Part shown: one piece after another, positions 8,904 through 25,619 of the stretch | Position numbering within the stretch: the stretch's first letter is position 1 | How the letters are laid out: the number at the start of each line of letters is the position of its first letter | Assembly (NCBI GenBank): GCA_964371245.1 | Contig: CAYJKP010000001.1 | Span: 187,042 to 251,041 of the forward strand | Reading direction: 5' to 3' | Length of the DNA stretch: 64,000 bases | From: an uncultured Gammaproteobacteria bacterium | Lineage (GTDB): Bacteria > Patescibacteriota > Patescibacteriia > JAHIZJ01 | Notes under the pieces: model-generated | What the model was told of the DNA's origin: nothing | The model's input: the letters and a program-made list of their open reading frames with translations, nothing else | Databases searched by the model: none | Made by a program: the position numbers and the translations under genes

Positions 8904-11591
8904 ATGTCAGAACACGCATGGTACAAATTGCCGCAGGCCAAGATTTTTGAGCTTCTAAAAACCAGGAAGACCGGTTTGACTGATCAGGAAGTTGCGGCGC
9001 GCCAGCGGAAATACGGATCGAATACATTGCCCCAGGACAAACGCGCGACCTGGGTTATTTTATTATTGAAACAATTTCAAAGTTCGCTCATTTATATCCT
9101 TTTATTTGCTGCCGGCGTAAGCTTGCTGCTGAATGATTATGTCGACATGTACGTGATTTTGGCAGCCGTGCTATTAAATGTCATCGTCGGCTTCATTCAG
9201 GAAAATCGGGCGATGAAAGCGATGGATAAGCTGCGCCGAGTCGTGGAATTCAGTACGCTGGTTCTGCGTGACAGCAGGGAGCTGAAGATTAATGTGGCGG
9301 ATTTGGTGCCGGGCGATGTCGTCCTCATTCAACCAGGCGATAAAGTACCGGCTGATGTCAGGCTGATCGAGGCAGAACAGCTGCGTGTTAATGAAGCGCG
9401 GTTGACTGGCGAATCCAACCCAGTCGTGAAATCCACGGAGACGCTCCACAACGAGCTGGTGCTGGCCGATCGTCTGAACATGGCGTTCATGGGCACGGTC
9501 GTTACCGGCGGTGTCGGCCGGGGCGTCGTCTGCGCGATCGGGCTGGAGACGGAAATCGGTCAGATCGCGAAGATGATAAAAGAAACCAAAGAAGAACAAA
9601 CGCCCCTGCAGAAAAAACTCAACAGTCTCAGCAAGTTAATCGGCGGGAGCGTGCTCTTGATCTGCCTGGGCGTTTTCCTGCTTGGCCTGCTGACGGGTCG
9701 CGCCTTCATCGAAATGTTCACCACCTCGGTCGCTATCGCCGTGGCGGCCATCCCCGAAGGTTTAGCGGTGGTGGTGACGGTTATTTTAGCGATCGGCATG
9801 CAGCGGATATTGAAACAACAAGGGCTCGTTCGCAAACTGGTGGCGGCCGAAACCCTGGGTTCCACCACGGTCATCTGCACTGACAAAACCGGAACGCTGA
9901 CTGAAGGGGAAATGCGGGTGGTTCGGGTTATTACGAACAATCATGATTTAGAGGCAACCGGAGACAAATTTAAAACGCACCTAAAAGAAACCGGGGATCA
10001 GACGAGTTTTATTACCGCGCTGAAAATCGGCGTCCTATGCAATGACGCCCACATTGAAAACGAATTCAGCCCGCTGCACGAATGGAAAATATTCGGCAAC
10101 CCGACGGAAAAGGCGCTCATCCTGGCTGGCAGCGAGGTCGGGCTGAGTCGTCATGTTTTGGAAAAAATACATCCGCGCCTGGCCGAGATACCGTTCAATT
10201 CAGAGCGGAAGTATATGGTCACGCTCCAGGGCTGGTCAAAAACGCACCACCTCATCTACATAAAAGGCGCACCAGAAAAAATACTCGAGATGTCCTGGCG
10301 GATCGACGTCGATGGCCAGATCGAACAGTTGACGCCTCAACAACGCGAAAAAATTAAAAAGCGCTTTGAGCATCTAAGTAATGAAGGGCTGAGAATCATC
10401 GCCCTGGCCTTTAAATCCACTTCGGCTGAAACGGCAGAATTAAAAGAAGCGCCCGGCCTGCTTGAGGATTTTGTTTTTGCCGGATTGATGGGCATCCAGG
10501 ATCCACTCCGGCCGGAAGCGAAAGAAACGATACGGCAGTGTAAGGAAGCCGGTATTGGAATCGCGATGATTACCGGTGATCATCGCTTGACCGCCCAATC
10601 AATCGCTCGTGAGCTGGGTTTGCCGTCAAAGATGGAGAACATCCTGCAAGGCGATGAGCTGGCCAAAATGAACGCGACACAGCTGCAGAAACGCGTCAAA
10701 AAGGTGTCCGTCTACGCTCGGGTGACGCCAAAAGACAAGCTGCGCATCGTTGACGCGCTCCAGGCCAATGGTGAGGTTGTCGCAATGACGGGGGACGGTT
10801 TGAACGACGCCCCAGCGCTGCGCTCCGCCGATATCGGCGTTTCGCTTGGTTCGGGAACTGACATTGCCAAAGAAACCGCCAACCTCGTTATTCTCGATAA
10901 TAATTTCAAAACGATTGTCGCCGCCGTCCGGCAGGGGCGCGTGCTTTTTGAAAACATCAAAAAAGTAGTGCTCTACCTCATGTCGGACAGTTTTTCTGAG
11001 GTGATCATTATAACTGGAGCGTTAGTGTTGGGCATACCGCTGCCGCTCGTGGCGGCGCAGATACTTTGGATCAATTTGGTTGGCGATGGCCTGCCGAACA
11101 TGGCGCTGACGGTTGAACCGGAGGAGCGTCACATCATGCAGGAATCACCGATTCGTCGGAATGCTCCGATCCTCGACACAGAAATGAAAACATTGGTTGC
11201 TGTCATCAGCGCTGTTACCGGCCTGGTCACGCTCGGCCTCTTTTACTATTTCTGGAAATCAACCGGCGATCTGTCGTTGGCCCGGACGATTGCCTTTACT
11301 TCCGTCGGCATTGACTCGCTGATATACGTCTTCAGCTGCCGTTCACTGCGGATACCAATCATAAAGAAAAATCCGTTTTCAAATCCCTGGCTGGTTTATG
11401 CCGTGATTGGTGGCATCATACTTCAAATTGCCGCCATCTATTTTGGGCCGTTGCAGAATGTTTTACGAACAGTACCGTTGACGCTTGACCATTGGCTGGT
11501 CATTGGCACGGCCGTTATATTTGTCATCCTGCTCATCGAAGTGATAAAATATTTATTCTTACACCAAAAAAAATTCCATGCGGCGCAATAA
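8904..11591 (+). CDS. P-type cation-transporting ATPase (P2-type, Ca2+/cation pump-like)
   Basis: 895 aa. DKTGTLT phosphorylation motif, TGDHRLTA, GDGLNDAPAL, 10 predicted TMs. Confidence 0.9.
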   Translation: MSEHAWYKLPQAKIFELLKTRKTGLTDQEVAARQRKYGSNTLPQDKRATWVILLLKQFQSSLIYILLFAAGVSLLLNDYVDMYVILAAVLLNVIVGFIQENRAMKAMDKLRRVVEFSTLVLRDSRELKINVADLVPGDVVLIQPGDKVPADVRLIEAEQLRVNEARLTGESNPVVKSTETLHNELVLADRLNMAFMGTVVTGGVGRGVVCAIGLETEIGQIAKMIKETKEEQTPLQKKLNSLSKLIGGSVLLICLGVFLLGLLTGRAFIEMFTTSVAIAVAAIPEGLAVVVTVILAIGMQRILKQQGLVRKLVAAETLGSTTVICTDKTGTLTEGEMRVVRVITNNHDLEATGDKFKTHLKETGDQTSFITALKIGVLCNDAHIENEFSPLHEWKIFGNPTEKALILAGSEVGLSRHVLEKIHPRLAEIPFNSERKYMVTLQGWSKTHHLIYIKGAPEKILEMSWRIDVDGQIEQLTPQQREKIKKRFEHLSNEGLRIIALAFKSTSAETAELKEAPGLLEDFVFAGLMGIQDPLRPEAKETIRQCKEAGIGIAMITGDHRLTAQSIARELGLPSKMENILQGDELAKMNATQLQKRVKKVSVYARVTPKDKLRIVDALQANGEVVAMTGDGLNDAPALRSADIGVSLGSGTDIAKETANLVILDNNFKTIVAAVRQGRVLFENIKKVVLYLMSDSFSEVIIITGALVLGIPLPLVAAQILWINLVGDGLPNMALTVEPEERHIMQESPIRRNAPILDTEMKTLVAVISAVTGLVTLGLFYYFWKSTGDLSLARTIAFTSVGIDSLIYVFSCRSLRIPIIKKNPFSNPWLVYAVIGGIILQIAAIYFGPLQNVLRTVPLTLDHWLVIGTAVIFVILLIEVIKYLFLHQKKFHAAQ

Positions 11592-12174
11592 TGTTTTGAC
11601 AGCCATTGCCTTCGTGTCGCTCGCGGTTTTACTCGTGGTCGAGCTTGGCACGCATTATGATAGTTGGGATCGTCAAGTGGCCCTCTCGATTACAAATATC
11701 ATCGGCGGCGGCGTTTATTTATTGATCTATTATTTCCTGAAACGGCGCGGCATCACGTTGCCGTGGATAGCGGCCTGGCTGGTCGCCCTGGGTATCTGGT
11801 TCGACGCGCTTGGGAATTTTCAGCACTTTTTCGGTCGGATCCTCTGGTGGGACAAGCTCGCGCATTTTACCGGCTCATTGCCCCCGGCCACGGTCTTTTG
11901 GGCGGTCCTGTATGGGTTTGGAAAAAAGGGGACGATCCGACTGCCAAATTGGCTAACCGGTATATTTGCCGTTTGTCTGACAGTAACGCTGTCGGTGGTA
12001 TACGAAATATCTGAATATATCGGTGACCTGAACTTTCCGACCCATCGGATAACGGATTTATACGATACGGTTGATGATTTAATGTATAATTTATTAGGCG
12101 CCGTCGCCGTGGTGATCATTTGTCTGCTTATTTATCGAAAGAAACAGAAAAACGACCGCCAAACGAGCGTTTGA
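11578..12174 (+). CDS. Hypothetical polytopic membrane protein
   Basis: 198 aa with 5-6 hydrophobic segments. Overlaps the ATPase stop by 14 nt. No confident family assignment. Confidence 0.5.
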   Translation: MRRNNVLTAIAFVSLAVLLVVELGTHYDSWDRQVALSITNIIGGGVYLLIYYFLKRRGITLPWIAAWLVALGIWFDALGNFQHFFGRILWWDKLAHFTGSLPPATVFWAVLYGFGKKGTIRLPNWLTGIFAVCLTVTLSVVYEISEYIGDLNFPTHRITDLYDTVDDLMYNLLGAVAVVIICLLIYRKKQKNDRQTSV

Positions 12175-12180
12175 AATATT

Positions 12181-12234
12181 TTGACAGCAGTCGGAAAAAT
12201 CGCTATAATTTAACAACACGATAGCGATTTTTTC
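12181..12234 (+). promoter_or_regulatory. Consensus promoter TTGACA-17-TATAAT embedded in an A-run/9-bp hairpin/T-run terminator upstream of asnS
   Basis: TTGACA at 12181-12186, TATAAT at 12204-12209. Inverted repeat aatcgctat (12198-12206) / atagcgatt (12221-12229) followed by T6. Confidence 0.5.
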
Positions 12235-12236
12235 TT

Positions 12237-13529
12237 ATGGAAAACACCAGAATAAATCAGGTTAATACGAGGGTCGGGAAAACGGTTGCGATCCGGGGCT
12301 GGATTTATAATTTTCGCTCATCCGGAAGCATCGTTTTCCTCCAATGCCGCGACGGGAGCGGTCAGATTCAGGCTGTTGTTAGTAAACAGGCGGTTTCACC
12401 CGAAGCCTGGCAAATATGCCAGAAAATGACGCTGGAAAGCTCGGTTTGCCTGGTCGGAACGGTTCGTGAGGATAAACGCTCAGTCTCGGGATATGAACTC
12501 GAGGTCAGCGACCTTTCCGTTTATCAGCTGGCCGAAGAATACCCAATCGCCAAAAAGGAGCACGGACCGGAATTTCTCATGGACCACCGTCATTTATGGC
12601 TGCGCTCAAGCCGGCAAACGGCCATCTTGCGCATCCGGGACGAGGTCGTCTGGCAATTACGAAAGTTTTTCCATGAGCAGGGTTTTGTCTTAACCGATTC
12701 TCCGGTGCTGACGCCGACCGCCTGTGAAGGCACGACCACGTTGTTCGAAACCAAATATTTCGACACCAAAGCGTACTTGGCCCAATCCGGCCAACTCTAC
12801 AGCGAGGCGACCGCCGGCGCGCTTGGCCGGGTCTACGATTTCGGACCAACCTTCCGGGCTGAAAAATCGAAAACCCGGCGCCACTTGATGGAATTCTGGA
12901 TGCTCGATGCCGAAGCGGCGTTTGTCGAGTTTGAGGAAAATATAAAAATCCAAGAGGAAATGCTCAGTGCCGTGGTTCAGAGCGTACTCCAAGAACGGAA
13001 AGCCGAGCTTGCCCTTTTAGAACGCGACACCGCCATTCTCGATAAAACGAAACCGCCGTTTCCTCGCCTGACGTATGCCGAGGCCGTTGAACGATTACAT
13101 CAAGCTGGCGTGGCGATGAAGGCAGGGGACGATTTTGGCGGTGACGAGGAAACGCTGTTATCGAAGCAATTTGATCAGCCCGTTTTTATCACTCACTACC
13201 CGACGAAGATTAAGGCGTTTTATATGAAGCCTGATCCGACCAACCCGGACCAAGTATTGAACAACGATCTCTTAGCTCCAGAGGGGTATGGGGAAATCAT
13301 CGGCGGCTCGCAAAGGATCGACGACCTGAAGCTGTTAGAACAGCGTTTGAAGGAACAGAAACTGCCGCGCAAGGATTTTGAATGGTATCTCGATCTCCGT
13401 CGCTACGGTTCGTTTCCGCACTCGGGCTTCGGTCTCGGGCTGGAACGGACGGTGCGTTGGATTTGCGGGCTCGACCACATCAGGGAAACGATCCCGTTTC
13501 CGCGTCTGCTAAATCGATTACGACCCTAA
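12237..13529 (+). CDS. asnS: Class IIb aminoacyl-tRNA synthetase, asparaginyl-tRNA synthetase-like (or archaeal-type AspRS)
   Basis: 430 aa. N-terminal OB anticodon-binding domain. Motif 2 FRAEKSKTRRHLMEFWMLDAE. Motif 3 GFGLGLERTV. Confidence 0.7.
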   Translation: MENTRINQVNTRVGKTVAIRGWIYNFRSSGSIVFLQCRDGSGQIQAVVSKQAVSPEAWQICQKMTLESSVCLVGTVREDKRSVSGYELEVSDLSVYQLAEEYPIAKKEHGPEFLMDHRHLWLRSSRQTAILRIRDEVVWQLRKFFHEQGFVLTDSPVLTPTACEGTTTLFETKYFDTKAYLAQSGQLYSEATAGALGRVYDFGPTFRAEKSKTRRHLMEFWMLDAEAAFVEFEENIKIQEEMLSAVVQSVLQERKAELALLERDTAILDKTKPPFPRLTYAEAVERLHQAGVAMKAGDDFGGDEETLLSKQFDQPVFITHYPTKIKAFYMKPDPTNPDQVLNNDLLAPEGYGEIIGGSQRIDDLKLLEQRLKEQKLPRKDFEWYLDLRRYGSFPHSGFGLGLERTVRWICGLDHIRETIPFPRLLNRLRP

Positions 13530-13538
13530 GCGATTCCT

Positions 13539-14951
13539 ATGACACGCATTACCACAATTCAGTCACTCGAACGCATTGGCGAAAAGGCGACCTTGGCCGG
13601 CTGGGCTGAAACGGTTCGCAAACTCGGAAAAATTTTATTTATCGACCTGCGCGATAAGGACGGACACTTGCAAATCGTCTGCTCGCCCGAACAAAGCGCG
13701 CTCTATGAAACGGCCAAGAGCATTCGGCCGGAGTATGTCATTCGCGTCACTGGCCGGATCGCCAAACGGGCTGAAAAGAACGTAAACAAAAAACAGCCGA
13801 CTGGTACGATCGAGCTTCAGCCCGAGCAGCTTGAAATATTAAGCACCTCGCTGACGCCGCCGTTTGAAATCGACAACGAGATCCGGCAGGCGTCGGAAGA
13901 GCTGCGCTTGAAATACCGCTATCTCGATCTACGGCATGAACGCATGCGCCGCAATTTGCGGATGCGTTCCGATATGCTGTGGTTTCTCCGCAATTGGCTG
14001 CACGAGCGCGGTTTTACCGAAATTCAGACGCCGATACTCTCAAAATCCACGCCGGAAGGGGCGCGCGATTTTCTCGTCCCGTCACGGCTTCAGAAAGGGA
14101 GATTCTTCGCCTTACCACAATCGCCCCAGCAGTACAAACAGCTCTTAATGGTTGCCGGCATTGAAAAATATTTTCAGATCGCTCCCTGTTTCCGTGATGA
14201 AGACGCCCGCGCCGACCGCAGTCCGGGCGAGTTCTACCAGCTTGATATCGAGTTGTCATTCATCAACCAGGAAGAAATACTGCAACTAACCGAGGAAATG
14301 TTTACCCAGATGGTGACGAAGATATTCCCTGAAAAACACATCATGACGACGCCGTGGCCGCGCTTGCGCCACGCCGAGGTGATGAAAAAATACGGGACGG
14401 ACAAACCCGATCTTCGCCAGAACAAAGAGGATAACAACGAACTCGCCTTTGCCTGGGTGATTGATTTTCCGCTGTTTACCAGACAGACGAAAGACGATTA
14501 TTTCTACGGGGCCGGCGACAAACTCGCGCCCTCTCACCACATGTTTACGGCGCCGAGAGAAGAGGATATCCCGCTGCTCGAGACCGCGCCGGAAAAAGTC
14601 CGCGCCTACCAGCACGACCTAGTCCTCAACGGGATCGAGGTCGGCGGCGGCAGCATCAGAATACACCGGCCGGAAATTCAAGAAAAAGTGTTTGACCTGA
14701 TCGGCTTTACCAAAGACCAGAAAAAACTGTTTAAACACCTGATGACAGCGTTCCAATATGGCGTACCGCCGCACGGTGGAATCGCCCCCGGCATTGAGCG
14801 TCTGCTCATGGCCATACTAGGTGAGAAAAATGTAAAAGAGGTAGCCGCTTTTCCGCTGACGAGCGAAGGCCGCGATCCGATGATGGATTCTCCATCCCGA
14901 GTTACCCCGGCGCAGCTGCGCGACCTCGGCTTGCGGCTTGATAAAAACTAA
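13539..14951 (+). CDS. aspS: Aspartyl-tRNA synthetase, short form lacking the GAD insertion domain
   Basis: 470 aa. CFRDEDARADRSPGEFYQLDIELSF and LVLNGIEVGGGSIRIH are bacterial AspRS signatures. It is about 120 aa shorter than typical bacterial AspRS. Confidence 0.8.
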   Translation: MTRITTIQSLERIGEKATLAGWAETVRKLGKILFIDLRDKDGHLQIVCSPEQSALYETAKSIRPEYVIRVTGRIAKRAEKNVNKKQPTGTIELQPEQLEILSTSLTPPFEIDNEIRQASEELRLKYRYLDLRHERMRRNLRMRSDMLWFLRNWLHERGFTEIQTPILSKSTPEGARDFLVPSRLQKGRFFALPQSPQQYKQLLMVAGIEKYFQIAPCFRDEDARADRSPGEFYQLDIELSFINQEEILQLTEEMFTQMVTKIFPEKHIMTTPWPRLRHAEVMKKYGTDKPDLRQNKEDNNELAFAWVIDFPLFTRQTKDDYFYGAGDKLAPSHHMFTAPREEDIPLLETAPEKVRAYQHDLVLNGIEVGGGSIRIHRPEIQEKVFDLIGFTKDQKKLFKHLMTAFQYGVPPHGGIAPGIERLLMAILGEKNVKEVAAFPLTSEGRDPMMDSPSRVTPAQLRDLGLRLDKN

Positions 14952-15276
14952 TATGCGCCTGTCACCGCTCCAAAAATATATCCTGCTCGAAGTCTACACT
15001 AGCCGAGTGCAGCTTTTTCCGCGGTCGGTTATTACGAAATACTACTTTTCCCAAACGCGACCGCCGAAGCTTGGCGATATGCAAAACATCGTGACGAAGA
15101 GCCTCGAACGGCTGATTGATAAAGAGCTGCTGACCGGTTATGGGCATCGGACGCCGCATAAATGGTTTATCAGCGAGGTGAAACTCACGCCGCTGGGTCG
15201 GCGGACAGCCAAACGGCTCCAGGGCGAACAGCAAACCCTGCCCTTACGACTCGCGAAAAGAAAGGTTAACAATTAA
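14938..15276 (+). CDS. Hypothetical small basic protein (possible winged-helix DNA-binding)
   Basis: 112 aa with a likely start at internal Met 14953. No recognisable motif. Overlaps the aspS end. Confidence 0.35.
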   Translation: MIKTNMRLSPLQKYILLEVYTSRVQLFPRSVITKYYFSQTRPPKLGDMQNIVTKSLERLIDKELLTGYGHRTPHKWFISEVKLTPLGRRTAKRLQGEQQTLPLRLAKRKVNN

Positions 15277-15287
15277 ATACGAAGGCT

Positions 15288-15758
15288 ATGAAACCACCAC
15301 AAAAAGTGCTGTCGTATCTAGACAAAAATAAAATTAAATACACGCTCGTCGAACATAAAACTGTCTATACGGCGTATGATGTTGCCCAAACTTTGAAAAT
15401 GAAACTCCAGGAAATTGTCAAAACGCTGCTCGTCAAGGTTGACGGGAAGCTCTCCCTGGCCGTTCTACCGGCCTCAGCCAGGCTGGATTTGAAGAAGCTG
15501 AAAGTCTTGGCCAAGGCGAAAAAAGTCGAGCTGCCGAAGGAAAACGTTATGAAGACCAAACTCAGCATCATTCCCGGCGCGCTCACCCCGTTCGGTCCGT
15601 TGTATAAGCTCCCCGTGTATCTCGATAAAAACCTGCTCAAACAGAAAGCCGTGCTGGTCGGTTCGGGCAGCTTCGAGTTTTCACTGAAAATGAGCCCGAG
15701 CGTCTTGGTCAAGGCGGCACTGCCAGTTACCGGCGCATTTTCGGCGAAGAAAAAATAA
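15288..15758 (+). CDS. YbaK/ProX-like aminoacyl-tRNA deacylase (trans-editing domain)
   Basis: 156 aa. Resembles the YbaK/ProRS-editing domain (KTLLVKVDGKLSLAVLP...IPGALTPFG). Confidence 0.65.
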   Translation: MKPPQKVLSYLDKNKIKYTLVEHKTVYTAYDVAQTLKMKLQEIVKTLLVKVDGKLSLAVLPASARLDLKKLKVLAKAKKVELPKENVMKTKLSIIPGALTPFGPLYKLPVYLDKNLLKQKAVLVGSGSFEFSLKMSPSVLVKAALPVTGAFSAKKK

Positions 15759-15775
15759 TCCCGTCCGTCATTCGC

Positions 15776-16486
15776 ATGTATCAGATCAAGCTAGAGCAAT
15801 TTGAAGGTCCGCTCGACCTCCTCCTCAGACTGATTGAGGAGGAGAAGCTTGATATAACGACCGTTTCACTCGCCAAGGTTACCGATCAGTATTTGGCGTA
15901 TATCGAGACAATGGAAGAAGTACGGACTGAGGAGCTGGCTGATTTCTTGGTTGTGGCGGCGAAGCTCCTTCTGATCAAGTCAAAAACGCTTCTGCCGTTC
16001 CTCCAGCCCGAGGCGGAAGAGATAGATCTGGAAAAGCAGCTCCGGATATATAAGGAGTATCTTGAGGCGTCGAAGCAAATCCAGGCGTTAATTCGGCGGA
16101 AGCGCTATCTCTACCCACGGGAAATGAGCCGGTCGATGCTGGAGCCGATTTTTAATCCGCCGCCGCAACTCGATGCGCCTGAGCTTCAGCGCATCATGCT
16201 CGAGGTTCTGCGGAAGATTGAGCCGATCGTCAGTCTGCCGGAGGAAGTAATCGAACGGACTGTTTCGATCCAGCAAAAAATCGATCAGATTCGGACGCTC
16301 ATTATTCAGCAAGAGACGACGAGTTTCCAGGCGCTTCTTAATACCGCCGGTACAAAAACCGAGGTGATTGTTACGTTCCTCGCGCTCCTCGAGCTTATCA
16401 AACAGGAAAATATCATTGTCGTACAACGGAGCGTTTTTGACGATATAACCATTAAGACATACGAAACGAATGTCATTGAAGAATAA
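15776..16486 (+). CDS. scpA: Segregation and condensation protein A
   Basis: MYQIKLEQFEGPLDLLLRLIEEEKLDIT is the ScpA N-terminus. Followed by scpB with a 17-nt overlap. Confidence 0.85.
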   Translation: MYQIKLEQFEGPLDLLLRLIEEEKLDITTVSLAKVTDQYLAYIETMEEVRTEELADFLVVAAKLLLIKSKTLLPFLQPEAEEIDLEKQLRIYKEYLEASKQIQALIRRKRYLYPREMSRSMLEPIFNPPPQLDAPELQRIMLEVLRKIEPIVSLPEEVIERTVSIQQKIDQIRTLIIQQETTSFQALLNTAGTKTEVIVTFLALLELIKQENIIVVQRSVFDDITIKTYETNVIEE

Positions 16487-17024
16487 AATCGAGAGCCTTC
16501 TCTTTGTGGCGACGAAACCGCTGGCGCCGAAGAAGCTCATCGAGCTGACGGGCGGCACCGAAGAAGAGATACGGAATGCGTTGGCCGAGATCCGCGAGCA
16601 ATATAACACTCAGGCGCAAGGCATTCAGCTGGTCAGCCACAACGGCAAGGTGCAGCTGATGACGAATCCGGAAAACAGGAAAATCGTCGAAGCCTATCTG
16701 AAGGAAGAACAGTTTAGCGAATTAACCAAGCCTGGTCTCGAAACGTTGACAATTATTGCCTATCGGGGACCGGTCACCAAGCCGGAACTGGAACAGATAC
16801 GCGGCGTGAATTGCAGTTTGATCCTGAGAAACCTGATGATAAAAGGCTTGGTTGAGGCGCAGGATGATCAGGAAAAAATGCAGACGAATTACACTGTCAC
16901 GTTTGATTTTATCCGGTACCTCGGTTTGCGCGAAATCTCCGAGCTGCCCGAGTATGAAAAGCTGTCACGGCACGAAAACATTGAGAAGATATTGGCCTTA
17001 ACCAATCAACCCAGCGAAGAATAA
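16470..17024 (+). CDS. scpB: Segregation and condensation protein B
   Basis: IESLLFVATKPL... tandem winged-helix ScpB, 184 aa. Confidence 0.85.
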   Translation: MSLKNKIESLLFVATKPLAPKKLIELTGGTEEEIRNALAEIREQYNTQAQGIQLVSHNGKVQLMTNPENRKIVEAYLKEEQFSELTKPGLETLTIIAYRGPVTKPELEQIRGVNCSLILRNLMIKGLVEAQDDQEKMQTNYTVTFDFIRYLGLREISELPEYEKLSRHENIEKILALTNQPSEE

Positions 17025-17957
17025 ATGCTGCCCTCACTATTGATCAGCGCGTTTATCATCACCCAGGTCGTACCACCCGCTTTTTTAATGAAACCGCTGG
17101 CGTTGGATTTTTCGAACGCCAACCAGCCGACGATTATTATTGCCGAAGAATACCCCTCGCATATTTATCCCGGCGAAAAACCGCAGAAAATTTCTCCCAG
17201 TCTCGGCATTGATACGACCGGCGCTTCAGTGGTGGTATTCGATCCGATCGGCGGCCAGCAACTTTTCCGCAAAAACCCAAACGCGGTCCGTTCCATTGCC
17301 AGCCTGACGAAGCTAATGACCGTACTCGTGTTTCTCGACCACAACCCGGGTTTTGGCCAAGAGGTTGAAATCACCGAAGCGGATCAAATCGCTGAAGGCA
17401 GTATTGGCTTGGAGGTGGGGGATAGAGTGATCGTCCGCGACCTTTTTTATGCCAGCCTGGTGAATTCAGCCAACAACGCCACCCAAGCCTTAGCCCGGTC
17501 GACCGGGATGTCACGGGAGGTTTTCGTCGCGGCGATGAATCAACGGGCCAACGACATGGGCTTAAAGCAGACTCATTTTGTCGACGTCACCGGGCTTGAT
17601 TCGGGAAACGTTTCGACCGCCAGCGAGGTCGCCCGCTTAGCCGATTTTGCTTTTCGGAACGCTGAAATATCACAGGCGACGACGCTGCCGAATCATGAGT
17701 TCACGACGTTGAACACCAATCGCACGATCCGTTTTAATAATACGAACAAACTGCTTGAATCATTCCTCCATCTGTCCGGCGGTAAGACTGGGTATACCGA
17801 GGAAGCGGGGTATTGTCTGGCGATCCGGACTGATGATGGACAGGGGCACGATATTGTCGTGGTTGATCTCGGCACCGCCGGCCCGGATGAACGTTTCCAG
17901 GAGGTGAAGGGGTTGATCAGCTGGACGTTCGAGAATTGGCGCTGGCCAGCTGATTAA
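17025..17957 (+). CDS. D-alanyl-D-alanine carboxypeptidase (peptidase S11, PBP5-like)
   Basis: N-terminal signal/TM. SxxK (SLTK), SxN (SANN) and KTG (KTGYT) motifs in the correct order. Confidence 0.7.
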   Translation: MLPSLLISAFIITQVVPPAFLMKPLALDFSNANQPTIIIAEEYPSHIYPGEKPQKISPSLGIDTTGASVVVFDPIGGQQLFRKNPNAVRSIASLTKLMTVLVFLDHNPGFGQEVEITEADQIAEGSIGLEVGDRVIVRDLFYASLVNSANNATQALARSTGMSREVFVAAMNQRANDMGLKQTHFVDVTGLDSGNVSTASEVARLADFAFRNAEISQATTLPNHEFTTLNTNRTIRFNNTNKLLESFLHLSGGKTGYTEEAGYCLAIRTDDGQGHDIVVVDLGTAGPDERFQEVKGLISWTFENWRWPAD

Positions 17958-17999
17958 AAAGATCATCAAAATATGGTATTGTTGAAGGGAAGAAAAGCC

Positions 18000-18764
18000 A
18001 TGAAGACTAAGCCGCTTATCGTTGCAAATTGGAAGATGAACCTCTTGCCGAGCCAGGAGGCTGATTTGGCGCAAAAATACGCCCAGGCGTTCACCCGCCT
18101 GGCGAAGAAGGTTGAAATTGTCATCTGTCCAACCCATACGGGCTTAGCGGGCGTCGCTGAACAGCTGCGCGGCTCTGCGCTGGTATTGGGTGCTCAGGAC
18201 GTATCAGGGGAGATGGTCGGCGCTTTCACCGGCGAGGTCTCAGCTGCCATGCTGAAAGAACTTGGGGTAACCCACTGCATTGTCGGGCACTCGGAACGAC
18301 GCCAGCGCGTCCATGAAACCGATGAAATGGTCAACGCAAAAACGCGGGCCGTGTTGGTCGAGGGGATGATACCGATTGTCTGTGTCGGTGAATCATATGA
18401 GGAACGGCTAAACGGCCAAAAAGAGGTCATGGTTCTACAACGGCTGACTGCAGCCATGAAAAACGTATCCGGGGAGCGGCCGGTTGTCATTACGTACGAG
18501 CCGATCTGGGCGATCAGTCCGGGCGGGCCAGCCTCGCCGGCTGAAGTTGAGCCGATGGTCTCGCTCATCCGGCAAACCTTGCGCGATTTGTTTCCCGCTG
18601 AACTCGTTGAGAAAAACTTCCGGATTATCTATGGCGGGAGCGTAGAGGGCGACAACATCAAGGATTTTCTCGGTCTGGAATATGTCGAAGGCGCGCTGGT
18701 TGGCGCAGCCAGTCTCCTTACCGCCCGCTTTACAAAAATTATTCAATCAGCCTCTAAATTATAA
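18000..18764 (+). CDS. tpiA: Triosephosphate isomerase
   Basis: Start at ATG 18000 (RBS GAAGGGA). IVANWKMN, catalytic His in CIVGHSERR, Glu in YEPIWAI. Confidence 0.85.
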   Translation: MKTKPLIVANWKMNLLPSQEADLAQKYAQAFTRLAKKVEIVICPTHTGLAGVAEQLRGSALVLGAQDVSGEMVGAFTGEVSAAMLKELGVTHCIVGHSERRQRVHETDEMVNAKTRAVLVEGMIPIVCVGESYEERLNGQKEVMVLQRLTAAMKNVSGERPVVITYEPIWAISPGGPASPAEVEPMVSLIRQTLRDLFPAELVEKNFRIIYGGSVEGDNIKDFLGLEYVEGALVGAASLLTARFTKIIQSASKL

Positions 18765-18767
18765 GCC

Positions 18768-19622
18768 ATGCTCGTCAAAACAAGCTATCTTATTCAGAAA
18801 GCACAGAAAGAAGGGTATGCCGTTGGCTGCTTCGTAGTCTATAATCTCGAAACAGCGCTGGGGGTCGCTCTGGCCGCGGTTGAGTCGCGATCGCCGGTGA
18901 TCATTGCCGTATCCGAGTTTACCATTTCGTTTCTTGGTCTCGAGACAATCAGCCAGGTAATTATGAGCCTGGCGAAGCATCAGGCGGTGAGCGTGCCAAT
19001 CGCGCTGCATCTCGACCATGGCCGCAGTTATGAGTCGGCGAAGGCTTGTCTGGACGAGGGTTTTTCTTCGGTCCAGATCGATGGCTCGCATCTGCCGTTC
19101 GAGGAAAACATTGCGCTGACGCAGAAAGTTGTTGAATACGGTCACCTGAAAAAAGTCTGGGTCGAAGGCGAGCTCGGGGCGATTTATGGGGGTCACGGCC
19201 AAACGGGAGAATACAAAGGCGAGATCCCGCTCGTTAAGCCAAGCGAAGTGAGCGAGTTTGTCGAGCAAACGAATGTCGACTTGCTGGCCGCCGCGCTTGG
19301 TACAGTCCATGGTAAATTTTCGAATGAACGCGTCCATTTTGACCTGCTCGCACAATTACAGAAAATAACCAGAACGCCACTGGTATTACACGGCGCTTCC
19401 GGCCTACCCGATGAAGAAATCACGCGAGCCGTCAAGGCGGGCATCGCAAAAGTAAACATTGGCACTGAGACGAAAAGACTGTTTATCGATTCAATACGGG
19501 AGACGCTTCAGAAAAATCCCAGTTTAGAGGGCCCACGTGAACTTATGAAACCGACGATCGAAGCCATTAAAAACATGGTCATGCAAAAATTCCGGGTGCT
19601 CGGCTCAGCAAACAAGATCTAA
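18768..19622 (+). CDS. fba: Class II fructose-bisphosphate aldolase
   Basis: 284 aa. HLDHG metal site, GCFVVYNLE. Class II FBA/TBP aldolase fold. Confidence 0.85.
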   Translation: MLVKTSYLIQKAQKEGYAVGCFVVYNLETALGVALAAVESRSPVIIAVSEFTISFLGLETISQVIMSLAKHQAVSVPIALHLDHGRSYESAKACLDEGFSSVQIDGSHLPFEENIALTQKVVEYGHLKKVWVEGELGAIYGGHGQTGEYKGEIPLVKPSEVSEFVEQTNVDLLAAALGTVHGKFSNERVHFDLLAQLQKITRTPLVLHGASGLPDEEITRAVKAGIAKVNIGTETKRLFIDSIRETLQKNPSLEGPRELMKPTIEAIKNMVMQKFRVLGSANKI

Positions 19623-19628
19623 CAAACA

Positions 19629-20117
19629 ATGAAAAAAATTGGTGGATTTACACTTATCGAGTTACTGGTAGTGATTGCGATTATCGGTTTAATTTCGAGT
19701 ATGTCGTTGATAGTACTTCGGGGCAAGGTTAGTGCCGCCCGTGATGCCAAGCGACGGGCGGACATAGCGACCCTGCAGACGGCGCTGGCTTTATATGAGG
19801 CTGATCATCAGAGATTTCCGGGGACAGGCGGTTGCGTCATAATAGATGGCCACTGGGTATGCTCGGTCGACCAAGTCGCCTGGTTCGTGCCGAATTTGGC
19901 TGAGTATATGACGCCGTCCCCGCCACAAGATCCGGGGCACCATAAAATCAGTAGTTGGAATACCTATGGCTATATTCCATTACCAGTGATGAACCATGCC
20001 TATGCGCTGTTTTTTATGTTGGAAGGCGGACCGCAAGAGGATTATTGTAATATTGGACCTATTTCACTCGTTGAAGGAGACCCGCCTGTTGTCTGGTCAA
20101 CGCGTTGTCCAGATTAA
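19629..20117 (+). CDS. Type IV pilin-like protein, paralog 1 (prepilin class III signal)
   Basis: MKKIGG/FTLIELLVVIAIIGLI is a prepilin peptidase site with E+5. Four Cys. C-terminal WSTRCPD. Confidence 0.75.
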   Translation: MKKIGGFTLIELLVVIAIIGLISSMSLIVLRGKVSAARDAKRRADIATLQTALALYEADHQRFPGTGGCVIIDGHWVCSVDQVAWFVPNLAEYMTPSPPQDPGHHKISSWNTYGYIPLPVMNHAYALFFMLEGGPQEDYCNIGPISLVEGDPPVVWSTRCPD

Positions 20118-20135
20118 TCCGGGAAGCGCCCACTA

Positions 20136-20633
20136 ATGAAAAAAACAAAAGGTTTTACTCTGATTGAGCTCCTCGTCGTCATCGCTATTATCGGTTTAAT
20201 TTCGAGCATGTCGTTGATCGTTCTTCGGGGCAAGGTGATGGCTGCCCGCGATGCCAAGAGACGGGCTGACATTGCCACGTTACAATCCGCGCTCGAGGTG
20301 TATAATTTTGACAAACAGCGCTATCCTGAACAAACATGGTGCGCTTGGCTGCCGAGCGGCCACTGGGTTTGCATAATCGATGAAATAAGCAATGACCTGC
20401 CTGATTTAGATGATTATATTAAACCGAACCCGCCTTCAGACCCAGGCCACCATAAGATTGCGGATTGGAATATGTATGGGTATATACCGAATCCAAATCC
20501 AAATCATGTGTATGCCCTTTTATTTATGCTTGAGCAAGGGCCCCAAGAAGACATGTGCAACATCGGACCCATAGATATCATTGATGATGGCATGAACGAT
20601 CCAATTATCTGGTCCACGCGTTGTCCCGATTAG
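20136..20633 (+). CDS. Type IV pilin-like protein, paralog 2
   Basis: The same N-terminal 50 aa as paralog 1 and a divergent C-terminal domain with conserved PSPPxDPGHH, FMLExGPQEDxCN, WSTRCPD. Confidence 0.75.
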   Translation: MKKTKGFTLIELLVVIAIIGLISSMSLIVLRGKVMAARDAKRRADIATLQSALEVYNFDKQRYPEQTWCAWLPSGHWVCIIDEISNDLPDLDDYIKPNPPSDPGHHKIADWNMYGYIPNPNPNHVYALLFMLEQGPQEDMCNIGPIDIIDDGMNDPIIWSTRCPD

Positions 20634-20650
20634 TCATAAGTCGTACCCAT

Positions 20651-21175
20651 ATGAAAAAAACAAACGGTTTTACGCTGATTGAACTCCTCGTCGTTATTGC
20701 GATTATTGGGCTTATTTCAACAATGACTCTCGTTGTACTCCGAGGAAAAGTATTAGCTGCCCGCGATGTCAAGCGACGGGCTGACATCGCCACCCTCCAG
20801 ACCGCCATCGCCGTCTACTATTCTGATAGAGATATATATCCTCCGCCGACTGTCCAAGGTGGGCCAGACGATTGTACGCTAAACTTTATTAATAATCACA
20901 ACATGTATTTATGTGCGGTCTATGAGGAATCGTGGTTTCTTCCGACACTTTCCAGTTACATGACACCCTCGCCGCCAGAAGACCCGGGGCATCACTCCCG
21001 TCCCAGCTACGACGGTTACCGGTATATTCCCGACGCCTATGATCAAACCGGTCGGTACCGTGGCTATGTCTTGTTCTTTATGCTTGAGCAGGAGCCCCAA
21101 GAAGACATGTGCAATATGGGCCCGATGAATTTTGGAGATGGGGTGGTAACGTGGTCAACGCGCTGTCCTGATTAA
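20651..21175 (+). CDS. Type IV pilin-like protein, paralog 3
   Basis: ATG at 20651 (MKKTNG/FTLIELLVV). The ORF track's 20621 start is an extension. The same conserved C-terminus as paralogs 1 and 2. Confidence 0.75.
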   Translation: MKKTNGFTLIELLVVIAIIGLISTMTLVVLRGKVLAARDVKRRADIATLQTAIAVYYSDRDIYPPPTVQGGPDDCTLNFINNHNMYLCAVYEESWFLPTLSSYMTPSPPEDPGHHSRPSYDGYRYIPDAYDQTGRYRGYVLFFMLEQEPQEDMCNMGPMNFGDGVVTWSTRCPD

Positions 21176-21205
21176 AATTGTAGATAATAATTTAGATCAA
21201 TAGGA

Positions 21206-22234
21206 ATGAAAAACGTGAACAAAATCCGCGTGGCGATCAACGGTTTCGGCCGGATCGGACGGACAACATTTAAACACTTGCTTGATAAGGCCAGTGTCGA
21301 AGTCGTGGCGATTAACGACCTGACTGACCCGGCTACCCTGGCCCATTTATTGGCCCACGACACCAGTTATCGCCGGTATGAACGCACGGTCAAGGGGCGC
21401 AAGGACACGCTCGTGGTCGACGGAAAAGCCTATAAGGTTCTGGCGGTGAAGGAGCCGAACAAGCTTCCCTGGAAAAAACTCCGCGTCGACGTTGTGCTTG
21501 AGTGCACTGGTCGTTTTACAACCAAGGCAGAAGCCGGACTTCATCTCAAAGCCGGGGCCAAGCAGGTGATCATCTCCGCGCCGGCCAAGGGCGGAGGCGT
21601 GCCGACCCTGCTGCTGGGCGTAAATGCAAACAAGTATAAGGGCGAGCCGGTCATTAATATGGGCTCGTGCACGACCAATTGCATCGCGCCGGTGGTTCAG
21701 ATTATCCATGAGAAATTCGGCGTCAAGAAATCGATGATGACCACCATCCATTCATATACGGCCGATCAAAACCTCCAAGACGGTCCGCACAATGATTTAC
21801 GACGGGCGCGCGGGGCAGCCGAGAATATCGTGCCGACCACGACCGGGGCGGCCATCGCCGTCACCGAGGCAATTCCTGAATTGAAAAATCGGTTTGACGG
21901 TTTGTCAATCCGCGTCCCAACACCGGTGGTGTCGGTGTCCGATTTCACGATTCTGCTCAAACGCAAAGCCACGGCCGAGGAAATCAACCGAGCGCTGGTC
22001 CGGGCAGCCAACAGCCCGCGTTACAAAGGCATTCTAGGCATCTCATCTGAACCACTGGTGTCATCCGACTATATCGGCAATGAATTTTCGGGAATTGTGG
22101 ATTTGGCGCTCACAAAAGTCATTGACGGCGATTTGGCGAAGGTCATCGCGTGGTATGATAATGAATGGGCGTATTCCCTCCGCCTGGCCGAAATGGCTGT
22201 ATTTATCGGGCGAAAGATAGCACGCCGGAAATAA
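21206..22234 (+). CDS. gap: Glyceraldehyde-3-phosphate dehydrogenase
   Basis: INGFGRIGR Rossmann N-terminus and catalytic SCTTNC, 342 aa. Confidence 0.9.
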   Translation: MKNVNKIRVAINGFGRIGRTTFKHLLDKASVEVVAINDLTDPATLAHLLAHDTSYRRYERTVKGRKDTLVVDGKAYKVLAVKEPNKLPWKKLRVDVVLECTGRFTTKAEAGLHLKAGAKQVIISAPAKGGGVPTLLLGVNANKYKGEPVINMGSCTTNCIAPVVQIIHEKFGVKKSMMTTIHSYTADQNLQDGPHNDLRRARGAAENIVPTTTGAAIAVTEAIPELKNRFDGLSIRVPTPVVSVSDFTILLKRKATAEEINRALVRAANSPRYKGILGISSEPLVSSDYIGNEFSGIVDLALTKVIDGDLAKVIAWYDNEWAYSLRLAEMAVFIGRKIARRK

Positions 22235-22258
22235 GCAGTTGAATATTTAACTGGGGTG

Positions 22259-22290
22259 TTGGCAGGCGAGCCTTAAGGCTCGCCTGCCAA
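22259..22290. terminator. Perfect 14-bp palindrome ttggcaggcgagcc-TTAA-ggctcgcctgccaa (U-tract-less terminator/REP-like)
   Basis: Perfect inverted repeat immediately after the gap stop. Related in sequence to the hairpin after dnaK (31021-31046). Confidence 0.45.
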
Positions 22291-22349
22291 GTTGCTGGTT
22301 GACTCATTACTGATTTTTTCGTACACTTTTATCGTTATAATATAAATGT

Positions 22350-22424
22350 GCCGCTATCGTCTAGTGGCTAGGACGCCAGGTTCTCATCCTGGTAACCGGG
22401 GTTCGACTCCCCGTAGCGGTACCA
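22350..22424 (+). tRNA. tRNA-Glu (anticodon CTC), CCA encoded
   Basis: 75 nt. Acceptor gccgcta/tagcggt, anticodon loop ttCTCat, T-loop ttcgact. Preceded by a TATAAT-like box. Confidence 0.85.
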
Positions 22425-22433
22425 GATGTTTAT

Positions 22434-23879
22434 ATGCTCGGAAAAAGATATTTTTCGTTACTAGTTCTCGCCGGCTTTCTGTGTCTGACGTTTCTCGTCC
22501 ATTTCAGAGTATTGAGGGTGTACTTTTTATCTGACGACTTTGGCTATGTCCTGTTGGCCCGTGATACCTCAGTGTCCGAGAGTATCAGCTTAATAACAAA
22601 GGAACAAAAACTTGGCTCGGGAACCGGGCTATATCGACCGATGGTTGATATAGCTTTTGTTTTTGCTTACCAGTTCTTCAAGGAAAATCCGGCCGGCTAC
22701 CATGCCACCAGCCTCATATTTCACGCGCTGATCGCCTGGCTTTTTTACCTGCTTATCTCAAGGATGAGCCACAACAAGGGGCTGGCTTTTTTAGCCGGCG
22801 CGTTTTTTATCGTTTACCCGATGAACATTGAAAGCATTGCCTGGCTGTCTAATTGGACCACACTGATATCCAGTTTGTTTATCATGTTGGCCATCTATCT
22901 GTATTGGGAATATCGCATTACAAAACAAATATATTTATTTTTCATTTCCCTATTAGCCATACTGTTTTCCCTTCTTGCCAAAGAGACCGCAATTATCATG
23001 CCCCTGGTTTTGATTGCGCTTGATCTGATGAGGAGCAAATTAAATGGCCAGACGGCGAAGAAAGTGTTTAGAAACTGGCTCAGTTATGCGGCCAGTATTG
23101 TGTTAATTGGACTGTTTTTTGCCTGGCGGTTTATCATGCTCAAAGGCCGGGGCGGTTATCGAACCTCCGATGGTGAATCCATTTACGGCAGTTTGACACA
23201 CAATGAAGTCATTACATTTCTCACCACCATAAAATATTTTCTGTTTAATTATCTGAACGATGTGGTTTTCCGCTTTCAAAACCGGCTAGCAATAATCTAT
23301 TGGTCAGTTTTTGCCGCTGTGCTTGTTCTGGCGGTATTGTACCTGGTGAACAAAAGGAAAAATATAAAATATTTCTGGCTGTTATTCGGCCTTGGCTGGA
23401 TTTACATTTTTACTTTGCCGGTTATCAATCTTTTAAACGGCATACACCGGGACTTATCCGGCTCGCGCTTTTTATATCTGCCAGGCTTGGGATTTTGCCT
23501 GCTGCTAGCGGTGCTGGTTTTGGATTTTAATAATCGTCCGGGAAAAATGCTTACATACGCCAAAGGGGCTGCGGTTGGGTTGTTTATTGTGGGTTTCAGC
23601 TTTTTGTCTTATAAAAACCAGGTGCCGTGGCTGGAAGCTTCGGCCCAGGTCCGGGCCGTCGGCGATAAAGTGCAGGCCAGCGTTAAAGACCCGCCGAGGA
23701 AGGCCGAATTTTATTTTAAAAATTTACCGGATAATTGGGCGGGCGCGTATTCTTTGCGCAACGGCATAGAAAACTATCTGCTGCTTTTGTACGACAAATC
23801 GCCCAGATACCTGACTGCGAAAAGGGTAGAGGAGTTTCCAGTGCAGAAGAGCGGAAAAAGCATGTATTTCTTTGATTAG
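22434..23879 (+). CDS. Polytopic membrane protein, putative GT-C glycosyltransferase (PMT/ArnT-like)
   Basis: 481 aa with more than 10 TMs. DD motif in the first periplasmic loop (LSDDFGY). Starts 10 nt after the tRNA-Glu 3' end. Family call is tentative. Confidence 0.45.
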   Translation: MLGKRYFSLLVLAGFLCLTFLVHFRVLRVYFLSDDFGYVLLARDTSVSESISLITKEQKLGSGTGLYRPMVDIAFVFAYQFFKENPAGYHATSLIFHALIAWLFYLLISRMSHNKGLAFLAGAFFIVYPMNIESIAWLSNWTTLISSLFIMLAIYLYWEYRITKQIYLFFISLLAILFSLLAKETAIIMPLVLIALDLMRSKLNGQTAKKVFRNWLSYAASIVLIGLFFAWRFIMLKGRGGYRTSDGESIYGSLTHNEVITFLTTIKYFLFNYLNDVVFRFQNRLAIIYWSVFAAVLVLAVLYLVNKRKNIKYFWLLFGLGWIYIFTLPVINLLNGIHRDLSGSRFLYLPGLGFCLLLAVLVLDFNNRPGKMLTYAKGAAVGLFIVGFSFLSYKNQVPWLEASAQVRAVGDKVQASVKDPPRKAEFYFKNLPDNWAGAYSLRNGIENYLLLLYDKSPRYLTAKRVEEFPVQKSGKSMYFFD

Positions 23880-23982: not shown

Positions 23983-24435
23983 TTGCTACGACCCGTTCGA
24001 TCCAGCGCCGTGGAGGAAAAAGAAATTACCTGGAACGACAAACAATTCGTCAAAGACCACATCACGAGCCTATTTCACATTCCTATGAACATGGGCAAGA
24101 AAATCGTCAAGAACATGGCCCTGATCGAAAAAGCGGGCGCGAAGGCAAGTTATCAATTAATGCTAACGGACGAGAAATCGCTCTGGGGTTCGGATATTTA
24201 TATTGATGTAACGAAACCAGTGTCCGGCGCTCAGATGAATACTGTTTCCGGAACATTTCTCACCAAAGTATTCGAGGGCCCTTATAAAAACGCCGGCAAG
24301 TGGGCCGGAGAAATGAAAACATACGTTCAGTCAAAAGGGAAGACAATAAAGAAACTTTATTTCTCATATACGACTTGTCCCAAATGCGCCAAGGCGTATG
24401 GCAAGAATTACGTCGTGCTTTTTGCGCAGGTGTAA
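23983..24435 (+). CDS. Hypothetical protein (TTG start in track; possible frameshifted gene with the ATG 23954 frame)
   Basis: 150-aa ORF without a good RBS. An upstream 43-codon ATG frame at 23954 sits in the +1 register across an A5 run. Confidence 0.35.
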   Translation: MLRPVRSSAVEEKEITWNDKQFVKDHITSLFHIPMNMGKKIVKNMALIEKAGAKASYQLMLTDEKSLWGSDIYIDVTKPVSGAQMNTVSGTFLTKVFEGPYKNAGKWAGEMKTYVQSKGKTIKKLYFSYTTCPKCAKAYGKNYVVLFAQV

Positions 24436-24508
24436 CGGGTTGGTACTATTGTCGATATAATTTTCAATAAAAGTTGTCTCTTTCAAACAAAGGGAGGCTT
24501 TTTACGTC

Positions 24509-24561
24509 TTGACAAAAATCATATATTCGTGTACCATCTTTAAGTCCTATAAATGTAGGAC
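24509..24561 (+). promoter_or_regulatory. Promoter TTGACA-17-TACCAT plus palindromic operator-like site GTCCTA-N6-TAGGAC at predicted +1
   Basis: TTGACA at 24509-24514, TACCAT at 24532-24537, perfect 6-bp inverted repeat at 24544-24561. A UUCG-loop hairpin and a GGAGGG SD follow. Confidence 0.5.
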
Positions 24562-24614
24562 GTTTTCACTCCTGCTTCGGCAGGGAGGTCGAACCACGCG
24601 GTGTAGGAGGGTTC

Positions 24615-25619
24615 ATGGGAGACAACGGGGGAAATCCACGTATCTTTGTCAGCGACCTGATCGGATCGCTCGAAGAAGCGTATGGCAGCCCGATCAAGGA
24701 GCTGGACCGCCAGCGGGAAGAGGGCCTTCGACTCGAAGGCAACGTTCCCGTCGGCAAGGTCATGCGGGCGCTCGTTCAAGCGCTCCGTCTCGTGTCAGGG
24801 CCGGCGGCCACGATTGATCGCGATCGGAGGCCCAACAGCAGCGATGAGCTGGTTCAGCTCATCATCGACCTGGCCATCGAGGCCAACTCGGACGACGCCG
24901 AACCGGCCGAAATCGACGTCACGATCGCCTATCTCGTCGGGTTGTTGGACATTTTCTACCGGGATCGCGATCCGGAGGGCCTCATACCGTACGCGGCCTA
25001 TCGGTCGAAGTTGCTCTGTAACCGACTGCTTGATGGGCGTATGGACGCCCGGCATCCACCGAAGGCCGACGAGATCGACGACATCGCCGAGCTTGGCGCC
25101 AGATACGGAGCCGAAGCGATGTCGGCCAATCCGGACGACTGGACCGCCTTCGTTCCGAGCACACCGCGCCAGGTGCGTCTCGCGGTGAAGATGGACGCCG
25201 GCGTCACGGACACGGAGTGGAGCGAGCTGCTCCAGCGGCTGGTCGCAAGGTCCGCAGGTGACCGGAAGTTCACCAGGACGGATGAAGAGGTCTTCGCCGA
25301 GCTGGACACCATGAGACATCAGGCCGAGGAGCGGCGGAAGCTCGAAGAGGAGCTGCCCGCGCTGCTGCGGCCGGCGCTGGCCAGGCTCGGTCTCCCCGAG
25401 GAGGCGGCTCTGAGCGTCAAGGTGAGTGGTCAGTTAGGAAGTCTCACGGCGCAGCGGTACACCGTCGAGCTGAGTCCGTCAGGCTGCCCGCACGGATGTT
25501 TCGGCATCACCGTCCATAGCCACGAGGCGCAGAAGAACCAACTGATGGGCGGTCTCAGGTCGATGTTGAGCCGCATCTTCGGCGGAAACATCGATGAGGT
25601 CGAAACGATCAGGCTCTAG
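24615..25619 (+). CDS. Hypothetical acidic protein encoded by a GC-anomalous (about 64-66% GC) gene
   Basis: 334 aa. SD GGAGGG 5 nt upstream of the ATG. Composition is much higher in GC than the flanking genes. Many overlapping shadow ORFs on both strands are typical of high-GC DNA. No motif recognised. Confidence 0.6.
   Translation: MGDNGGNPRIFVSDLIGSLEEAYGSPIKELDRQREEGLRLEGNVPVGKVMRALVQALRLVSGPAATIDRDRRPNSSDELVQLIIDLAIEANSDDAEPAEIDVTIAYLVGLLDIFYRDRDPEGLIPYAAYRSKLLCNRLLDGRMDARHPPKADEIDDIAELGARYGAEAMSANPDDWTAFVPSTPRQVRLAVKMDAGVTDTEWSELLQRLVARSAGDRKFTRTDEEVFAELDTMRHQAEERRKLEEELPALLRPALARLGLPEEAALSVKVSGQLGSLTAQRYTVELSPSGCPHGCFGITVHSHEAQKNQLMGGLRSMLSRIFGGNIDEVETIRL

Follow-up and report, generated by a model that had tools for sequence, protein, structure and literature searches.

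Tandem type IV pilin-like genes of a rare Patescibacteria subfamily occupy a conserved slot between fba and gap

Synechocystis and Kingella kingae each carry tandem major-pilin paralogs, pilA1 and pilA2, of which one copy is the major pilin, and in Pseudomonas aeruginosa divergent groups of pilA alleles lie between the conserved pilB gene and a tRNA-Thr gene. Within Patescibacteria, type IV pili are widespread, and in Saccharibacteria they are essential (PMC11665869, PMC11623550). The saccharibacterium TM7x (Nanosynbacter lyticus) has pilin-only and orphan pilin loci apart from the pilus machinery (PMC11665869, PMC11623550); its PilA1 and PilA2 are small “lollipop” pilins with class III leaders, and its pilins have roles in host binding and twitching motility (PMC11623550). 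Here we describe a locus from the same phylum-level group, at positions 19629-21175 of a 64,000-nucleotide stretch of DNA (the window; contig CAYJKP010000001.1, positions 187,042-251,041 of the forward strand, assembly GCA_964371245.1), in which three tandem genes lie between the glycolytic genes fba and gap. The best explanation of the locus as a whole, and one that we consider probable, is that the three genes encode type IV pilin-like subunits, members of a narrow Patescibacteria subfamily, whose head is related to GspG. Like the TM7x pilins they have class III leaders, and several TM7x pilin loci also lie apart from assembly genes. They differ from the TM7x pilins, which we compared by published description and not by sequence, in having a low content of Gly, Ala, Ser and Thr (GAST) and a distinct four-Cys head ending in WSTRCPD, and glycolysis genes as neighbors of pilins are unmentioned in the TM7x study (PMC11623550).

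The three genes, named here pil1, pil2 and pil3, are as follows.

19629-20117, + strand: pil1, a prepilin of 162 residues with leader MKKIGG, mature sequence beginning FTLIE, cysteines at positions 69, 78, 140 and 160, and C-terminus WSTRCPD
20136-20633, + strand: pil2, a prepilin of 165 residues with leader MKKTKG (PF07963, E 6e-9)
20651-21175, + strand: pil3, a prepilin of 174 residues counted from ATG, with leader MKKTNG (PF07963, E 2e-8)

The original prediction for this stretch had called three tandem, tightly spaced open reading frames (ORFs) on the + strand between fba and gap, and all three are present at these coordinates. The ORF lister extends pil3 upstream to a TTG at 20621. In the DNA, pil1 to pil3 appear as a direct repeat of three copies (period 507-554 nucleotides). 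Two antisense ORFs (20114-20314 and 20605-20808), mirror images of the repeated 5' segment, were taken as artefacts.

All three products begin with an MKKxxG leader followed by FTLIELLVVIAIIGLIS (MKKIGG|FTLIELLVVIAIIGLIS in pil1), and each carries a class III signal, composed of a short basic leader ending in Gly, Phe at +1, Glu at +5 and about 20 hydrophobic residues. The N-methylation profile PF07963 (N_methyl) matched all three at 31-35 bits (cut-off 21.2) and TIGR02532 at 27.6-32 bits (cut-off 16.3), scores above the curated cut-offs that bear out their designation as type IV pilin-like paralogs; pilin identity is among the points established by this analysis. No further prepilin motif was found in the window. 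In a paralog alignment, amino acid identity was 68% (pil1 and pil2), 63% (pil1 and pil3) and 58% (pil2 and pil3), with 82 invariant columns and two short insertions in the globular domain of pil3. In a database of 5.8 billion proteins the paralogs matched each other at E values of 6e-67 and 4e-49, indicating paralogy far beyond chance. The shared motifs were quoted only approximately in the original prediction, as copy 2 has PNPPSDPGHH and copy 3 has MTL, ARDVKRR and FMLEQEPQED. The arrangement resembles pilA1-pilA2 of Synechocystis and Kingella in that adjacent same-strand paralogs of similar length have a near-identical N-terminal helix and diverged heads, but those genes belong to other phyla and other pilin subfamilies.

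AlphaFold2 (AF2) models of the full protein (pil1) and of the head alone had predicted local distance difference test scores of 88.6 and 87.5. They show the pilin fold, a long N-terminal alpha helix with an antiparallel beta sheet: helix 9-60 is followed by five strands, two of them forming a beta hairpin flanked by Cys69 and Cys78 and the other three reaching close to Cys160. All meaningful matches in a Foldseek search against the PDB were pilins (Clostridioides difficile PilW and PilA1, the enterotoxigenic Escherichia coli type IVb pilin, CofA and Vibrio GspG), so the structural prediction is pilin-like, though the matches are weak. PilA1 and PilW of C. difficile (6t8s, 7t31), which are monoderm pilins, were the top structural neighbors of both models, but with weak similarity (template modelling (TM) score 0.3-0.45, E>0.1, 18-22% identity). 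Exactly four cysteines occupy aligned positions in all three window copies and in 20 of the 20 family members examined, Cys140 and Cys160 (pil1 numbering) being invariant throughout and Cys69 and Cys78 likewise; the earlier statement that the copies differ in an extra Cys pair was wrong. Most likely, the four residues would form two disulfides, one of which would close a C-terminal loop.

The best full-length family model is GspG (TIGR01710, E 1e-9 to 1e-12), although its 36.0-46.9 bits do not reach the cut-off of 88.85, and a borderline match to PF08334 (T2SSG) was found in pil2 only (20.4 bits, cut-off 21). A profile of 46 homologs, compared with solved pilins, matched GspG 5wda at E 1.6e-15 and EpsG 3gn9 and 4lw9 at E of about 1e-6 over profile positions 33-148, globular head included. 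Thus GspG/EpsG is the best whole-protein relative (profile E 1e-6 to 1e-15), sharing also an ARDAKR-type motif in the N-terminal helix, and the window pilins differ from it in scoring below the family cut-offs, in their two conserved Cys pairs and in lacking a type II secretion system (T2SS) context.

In this analysis we defined the four-Cys “WSTRCPD” pilin subfamily of the fba-gap slot by the motifs DPG[GH]H, PQEDxC and W[ST]TRC, four cysteines and a position between fba and gap. It comprises the three window copies and the pilins of five other species (loci L007/L012, L009, L010/L013, L014 and L020). An exhaustive profile search of 1.84 billion representatives returned 228,200 pilin-like proteins at E<=0.001 and only 12 representatives at E<=1e-30, with only about ten matching through the C-terminal WSTRCPD, and a word-indexed search gave a similar result, some 16 relatives matched over the full length, each either without a name or labelled Patescibacteria. 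The locus is a new, rare subfamily of a very well-known kind of protein at a conserved but unusual address, and not a new type of system. The pilin profile also matched in two separate stretches each of proteins P0139 (245 residues) and P0140 (334 residues), which may represent tandem pilins that have fused or gene calls that were merged.

The features that flank the pilin genes are listed below.

17973-18764, + strand: tpiA, triosephosphate isomerase (PF00121, E 1e-75), upstream flank, 98% amino acid identity to L007
18768-19622, + strand: fba, class II fructose-bisphosphate aldolase (PF01116, E 4e-89; TIGR00167 above cut-off), 98% amino acid identity to L007
21176-21205, + strand: pilin-gap spacer, AT-rich, with a -10-like GATAAT about 19 nucleotides 5' of the gap ATG
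21206-22234, + strand: gap, type I glyceraldehyde-3-phosphate dehydrogenase (PF00044, PF02800 and TIGR01534 above cut-off), downstream flank, 95% amino acid identity to L007
22350-22424, + strand: tRNA-Glu(CTC), found by ARAGORN and Rfam, at the end of the same-strand gene string

The gaps fba-pil1, pil1-pil2, pil2-pil3 and pil3-gap are 6, 18, 17 and 30 nucleotides long. The setting had been described as a tpiA-fba-gap operon into which the pilins were inserted, and neither term fits: the genes sit inside a string of 16 genes on the + strand, from 8904 to 22234 (~13 kb) with gaps of <=62 nucleotides, which is not a canonical gap operon, and the arrangement is ancient. The gene order ScpA-ScpB-S11 peptidase-TpiA-Fba-pilin(s)-Gap is common to six species, with the following slot contents.

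Window: three pilins between fba and gap
L007/L012: two pilins; Fba 98% identical
L009: two pilins
L010/L013: two pilins
L014: two pilins; Fba 65% identical
L020: one pilin; the sequence starts at fba, and the visible order is Fba-pilin-Gap

In L009, L010/L013 and L014 additional DNA separates the S11 peptidase gene and tpiA, and in L009 and L010 this DNA is a Sm_multidrug_ex gene. The slot is kept down to 65% Fba identity and about 40% pilin identity; placement between fba and gap is old and fixed, and is not a recent insertion. The comparison of paralog number gave one to three copies across the six species and no variation among six assemblies of the window's population, which are 99.7-100% identical over the locus; this Patescibacteria population has been recovered repeatedly, on contigs reaching 918 kb and 1.18 Mb. 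A general linkage of pilins to fba in Patescibacteria is unsupported, as no pilin was found near fba in four more distant Fba loci (L026-L029), with 17 remote loci serving as negative controls, and the linkage of pilins with fba and gap is specific to this clade. The one distant exception, L016 (91-6924), is a Patescibacteria contig with minor pilins, PilC and PilB on one strand and a pilin, a pfkB-family kinase and fba on the other, and is a second, independent case of a pilin adjoining sugar-catabolism genes. We found no paper on a pilin-glyceraldehyde-3-phosphate dehydrogenase operon in the candidate phyla radiation. L013 and L016 clearly share Patescibacteria synteny or gene content, yet their public label is “uncultured Gammaproteobacteria bacterium”, which looks like a labelling error.

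Comparison with the sister genome L007 shows that the cassette is a sharply bounded divergence hotspot, with gene gain or loss, between highly conserved flanks. Fba, TpiA and Gap are 95-98% identical at the amino acid level and the pilins 67-86%; differences at fourfold-degenerate sites are 0.13-0.33 in the flanks (pooled 271/1148, about 0.24) and 0.51-0.67 in the pilins (Fisher p 2e-6 to 1e-9). Sliding nucleotide identity is ~0.9 in fba, 0.56 across pil1, 0.78-0.89 in pil3 and 0.86-1.0 in gap. In the global alignment, an indel of about 520 nucleotides corresponds to pil2, a copy without a counterpart in L007/L012. The pil3 gene is the ortholog of the gap-proximal L007 pilin, L007_2 (86% amino acid identity, 100% bootstrap), and pil1 is nearest L007_1 (73%, 65% bootstrap). 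Since pil2 branches outside the pair of pil1 and L007_1, the tree suggests either an extra copy older than the split that L007 has since lost, or an import. GC content at third codon positions (GC3) is 0.49-0.51 in the pilins against 0.58-0.65 in the flanks. At the hotspot, for which one close genome pair was compared, old alleles may have been exchanged, paralogy may be hidden, or synonymous sites may be under weaker constraint.

Right after tRNA-Glu, at 22434-23879, is a gene for a multi-pass membrane protein with 82% amino acid identity to its L007 counterpart and fourfold-site differences of 0.41 (its neighbors are 95-98% identical). It gave only weak matches (PTPS_related PF10131 below cut-off; NF047440, putative glycosyltransferase, E 0.002), no solved structural relative was found, and a function in glycosylation of the surface or of pilins is a guess. 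The adjoining 23983-25619 region, which contains a Bact_hydrolase gene (PF20603) and a 334-residue ORF (24615-25619), both missing from the syntenic region of L007, is probably a foreign insertion; the ORF has 63% GC and a GC3 of 78%, against about 51% GC for the window, and no Pfam or NCBIfam match.

The paralogs had been called rapidly diverging. This holds for the cassette relative to its flanks between sister genomes, but not for the three copies as paralogs, which are old and under purifying selection. Their proportion of synonymous differences (pS) is 0.70-0.79 and their fourfold-site differences 0.61-0.66, and the ratio of nonsynonymous to synonymous divergence (dN/dS) is 0.06-0.17 where estimable (0.07 for pil3 and L007_2). 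Pairwise dN/dS gave no signal of positive selection, with little power because synonymous sites are saturated for most pairs. Even the conserved first 55 codons have 13/25 to 20/26 fourfold-site differences and only 70-76% nucleotide identity, which excludes recent duplication or gene conversion as the source of the near-identical N-termini; the N-terminus has therefore been kept by purifying selection. In L009 (6001-7070), the two slot pilins have a pS of 0.27 in the first 55 codons and a saturated 0.79 in the rest, which suggests gene conversion of the 5' segment, an event not seen in the window.

The junction between fba and the first pilin gene is 1-6 nucleotides long in five species, leaving no space for a promoter outside fba and making it plausible that the pilins are co-transcribed with fba by transcription entering from upstream. 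No + strand terminator-like site was found from 14.5 kb to the 3' end of gap, the first being at 22185, inside gap. The AT-rich spacer between the pilins and gap is 30-40 nucleotides long across species, and a TAAAT(A/T)AT-like element occurs at similar spacing in L007, L009, L010 and L020. The consensus promoter scan did not call the spacer element and found no -35 element. From these motifs, gap may have an additional promoter of its own in the spacer. No recognizable Shine-Dalgarno motif was found upstream of the 16 same-strand genes (8904-22434), and this organism seems to initiate translation without depending on one.

In the mechanism that we propose, prepilin peptidase would cleave after Gly6, and the subunits would be pulled from the membrane and polymerized by a type IV pilus machine whose genes would lie in another part of the genome, such that the conserved hydrophobic alpha-1 helix would form the fibre core and the variable head, with its two predicted disulfides, would be exposed. 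The three proteins are probably alternative major or major-like subunits, a step in which we have modest confidence. Transcription would most likely enter upstream and run through fba into the pilin slot, which, within its long same-strand string of housekeeping genes, is old and fixed, with one to three copies between species. Pilin identity, the conserved slot, the age of the paralogs, purifying selection and the hotspot are established here; processing, assembly, co-transcription, expression level and a biological role in host attachment, motility or DNA uptake are what we infer for these genes. Patescibacteria depend on pili to find and hold hosts, and displayed pilins likely shape host range. 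With its fixed address and changing copy number and heads, the locus is a convenient marker for pilin turnover in an uncultured clade, and it lends itself to testing for a link between pilin expression and central carbon metabolism.

Several observations weigh against this account. No gene for PilB, PilC, PilD, PilM or PilT was found in the window, nor past its right end over 10 kb, where only glycosyltransferase genes were found; the search consisted of Pfam scans of about 48 window ORFs, a scan for GspE-type Walker-box motifs and the 10-kb right extension of a genome of ~0.9-1.2 Mb, and its Pfam and Walker-box scans confirm the earlier remark that the window has no assembly ATPase or platform gene. 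The Foldseek matches are weak (E 0.16-3, TM score 0.3-0.48), indicating that the proteins are without a close solved relative. Excess synonymous divergence might partly reflect the weaker GC3 bias of the pilins and not allele exchange. Finally, GAST of the window pilins is not raised (0.19-0.27), whereas GAST reaches 36-39% in those TM7x pilins, the major pilin PilA2 among them, that were identified as the most vulnerable to being sheared off (PMC11623550).

In TM7x, low GAST also marks two orphan pilins, PilJ and PilK, and the pilin PilW2, whose scores resemble those of intracellular proteins (PMC11623550), and together with the enrichment of competence machinery in Patescibacteria (PMC11665869) low GAST lends some weight to the idea, which we nevertheless consider unlikely, that the three proteins are not major subunits but Com-type pseudopilins for DNA uptake or minor (tip or priming) pilins, serving acquisition of DNA or nucleotides. 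The proteins do give weak N-terminal matches to ComGC, ComGD, ComGE, ComGF, GspH and GspJ. Scores for the Com and minor-pilin models, however, are 17-33 bits against cut-offs of 49-80 and reflect the shared N-terminus only, and the ComGC model NF040999 gave 17.7-22.6 bits against a cut-off of 75, limited to the N-terminal 20-62 residues. ComGC has ~100 residues, unlike the window pilins, which have 156-168 residues in mature form and a structured (predicted) two-disulfide head. Sets of minor pilins are normally dissimilar to one another, whereas the window copies have one common N-terminus and one architecture; on the basis of their similar size and shared N-terminus, alternative major-type subunits are favored over a minor-pilin set. 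Far less probable still is that these are GspG pseudopilins of type II secretion, even though GspG is the best full-length model, PF08334 is borderline in pil2 and the homologs carry the NCBI name “type II secretion system protein”. The scores fall short of the family thresholds (36-47 bits against 88.85 for GspG and 20.4 against 21 for PF08334), and no secretin, GspC/L/M or other T2SS gene was found among the window ORFs scanned against Pfam. Moreover, a T2SS spans an outer membrane, a structure generally considered absent from Patescibacteria, and what GspG proteins normally carry is a calcium site in place of a C-terminal disulfide loop.

The preferred identification as pilus subunits is compatible with different readings of their location. 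On one, the fba-gap slot would be a dedicated site for exchange of pilin cassettes and transcription running through fba would couple the supply of pilins to expression of the glycolytic genes, a combination that we regard as doubtful. The housekeeping flanks would then act as homology arms, naturally competent Patescibacteria would swap, gain or lose pilin alleles older than the species, and pilin swaps would change host or surface specificity. The window slot does resemble that of P. aeruginosa pilA in that its content differs sharply, in sequence and in extra genes, between close relatives while the flanks are conserved, but here the flanks are glycolytic and not pilus genes, the slot is without an accessory modification gene, and allele exchange is deduced from excess divergence only. 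Standing a considerably better chance, and to our minds evenly poised, is the view that a location between fba and gap is without functional meaning, an accident frozen in a compact genome, and that the apparent hotspot reflects only weak constraint on surface proteins. Consistent with it, genes throughout the region are packed densely on one strand, at most 62 nucleotides apart and without Shine-Dalgarno motifs, the four more distant Fba loci are pilin-free, a relative has another orphan pilin elsewhere, and in the neighboring fast-evolving membrane protein, too, a low GC3 accompanies high synonymous divergence. Against it, the slot is retained in six species while its content shifts between one and three copies and diverges to about 40% identity. 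A frozen accident is compatible with pilin identity and denies only a regulatory or recombinational role of the location.

In a relative of the clade, an orphan pilin gene is found after miaA, among housekeeping genes. Elsewhere in the window, 41884-44433 encodes an 849-residue protein whose domains are those of VirD4/TraG/TrwB-type coupling proteins and which may belong to the type IV secretion system described for Patescibacteria (PMC12102498). A DnaB helicase ORF on the - strand (6282-8432) has 716 residues from the TTG start chosen by the ORF lister, with recognized domains from residue 261; the ~260 residues that precede them match no family and may stem from the ORF call itself. Two adjacent class II aminoacyl-tRNA synthetase paralogs of 430 and 470 residues (12237-14951), both with tRNA_anti-codon and tRNA-synt_2 domains, are presumably the asparaginyl and aspartyl enzymes. 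At the right end, a large cluster of glycosyltransferase, sugar-nucleotide and polysaccharide-export genes spans 57006-63999 and continues (L023, 11055-21068) for at least 10 kb past the window.

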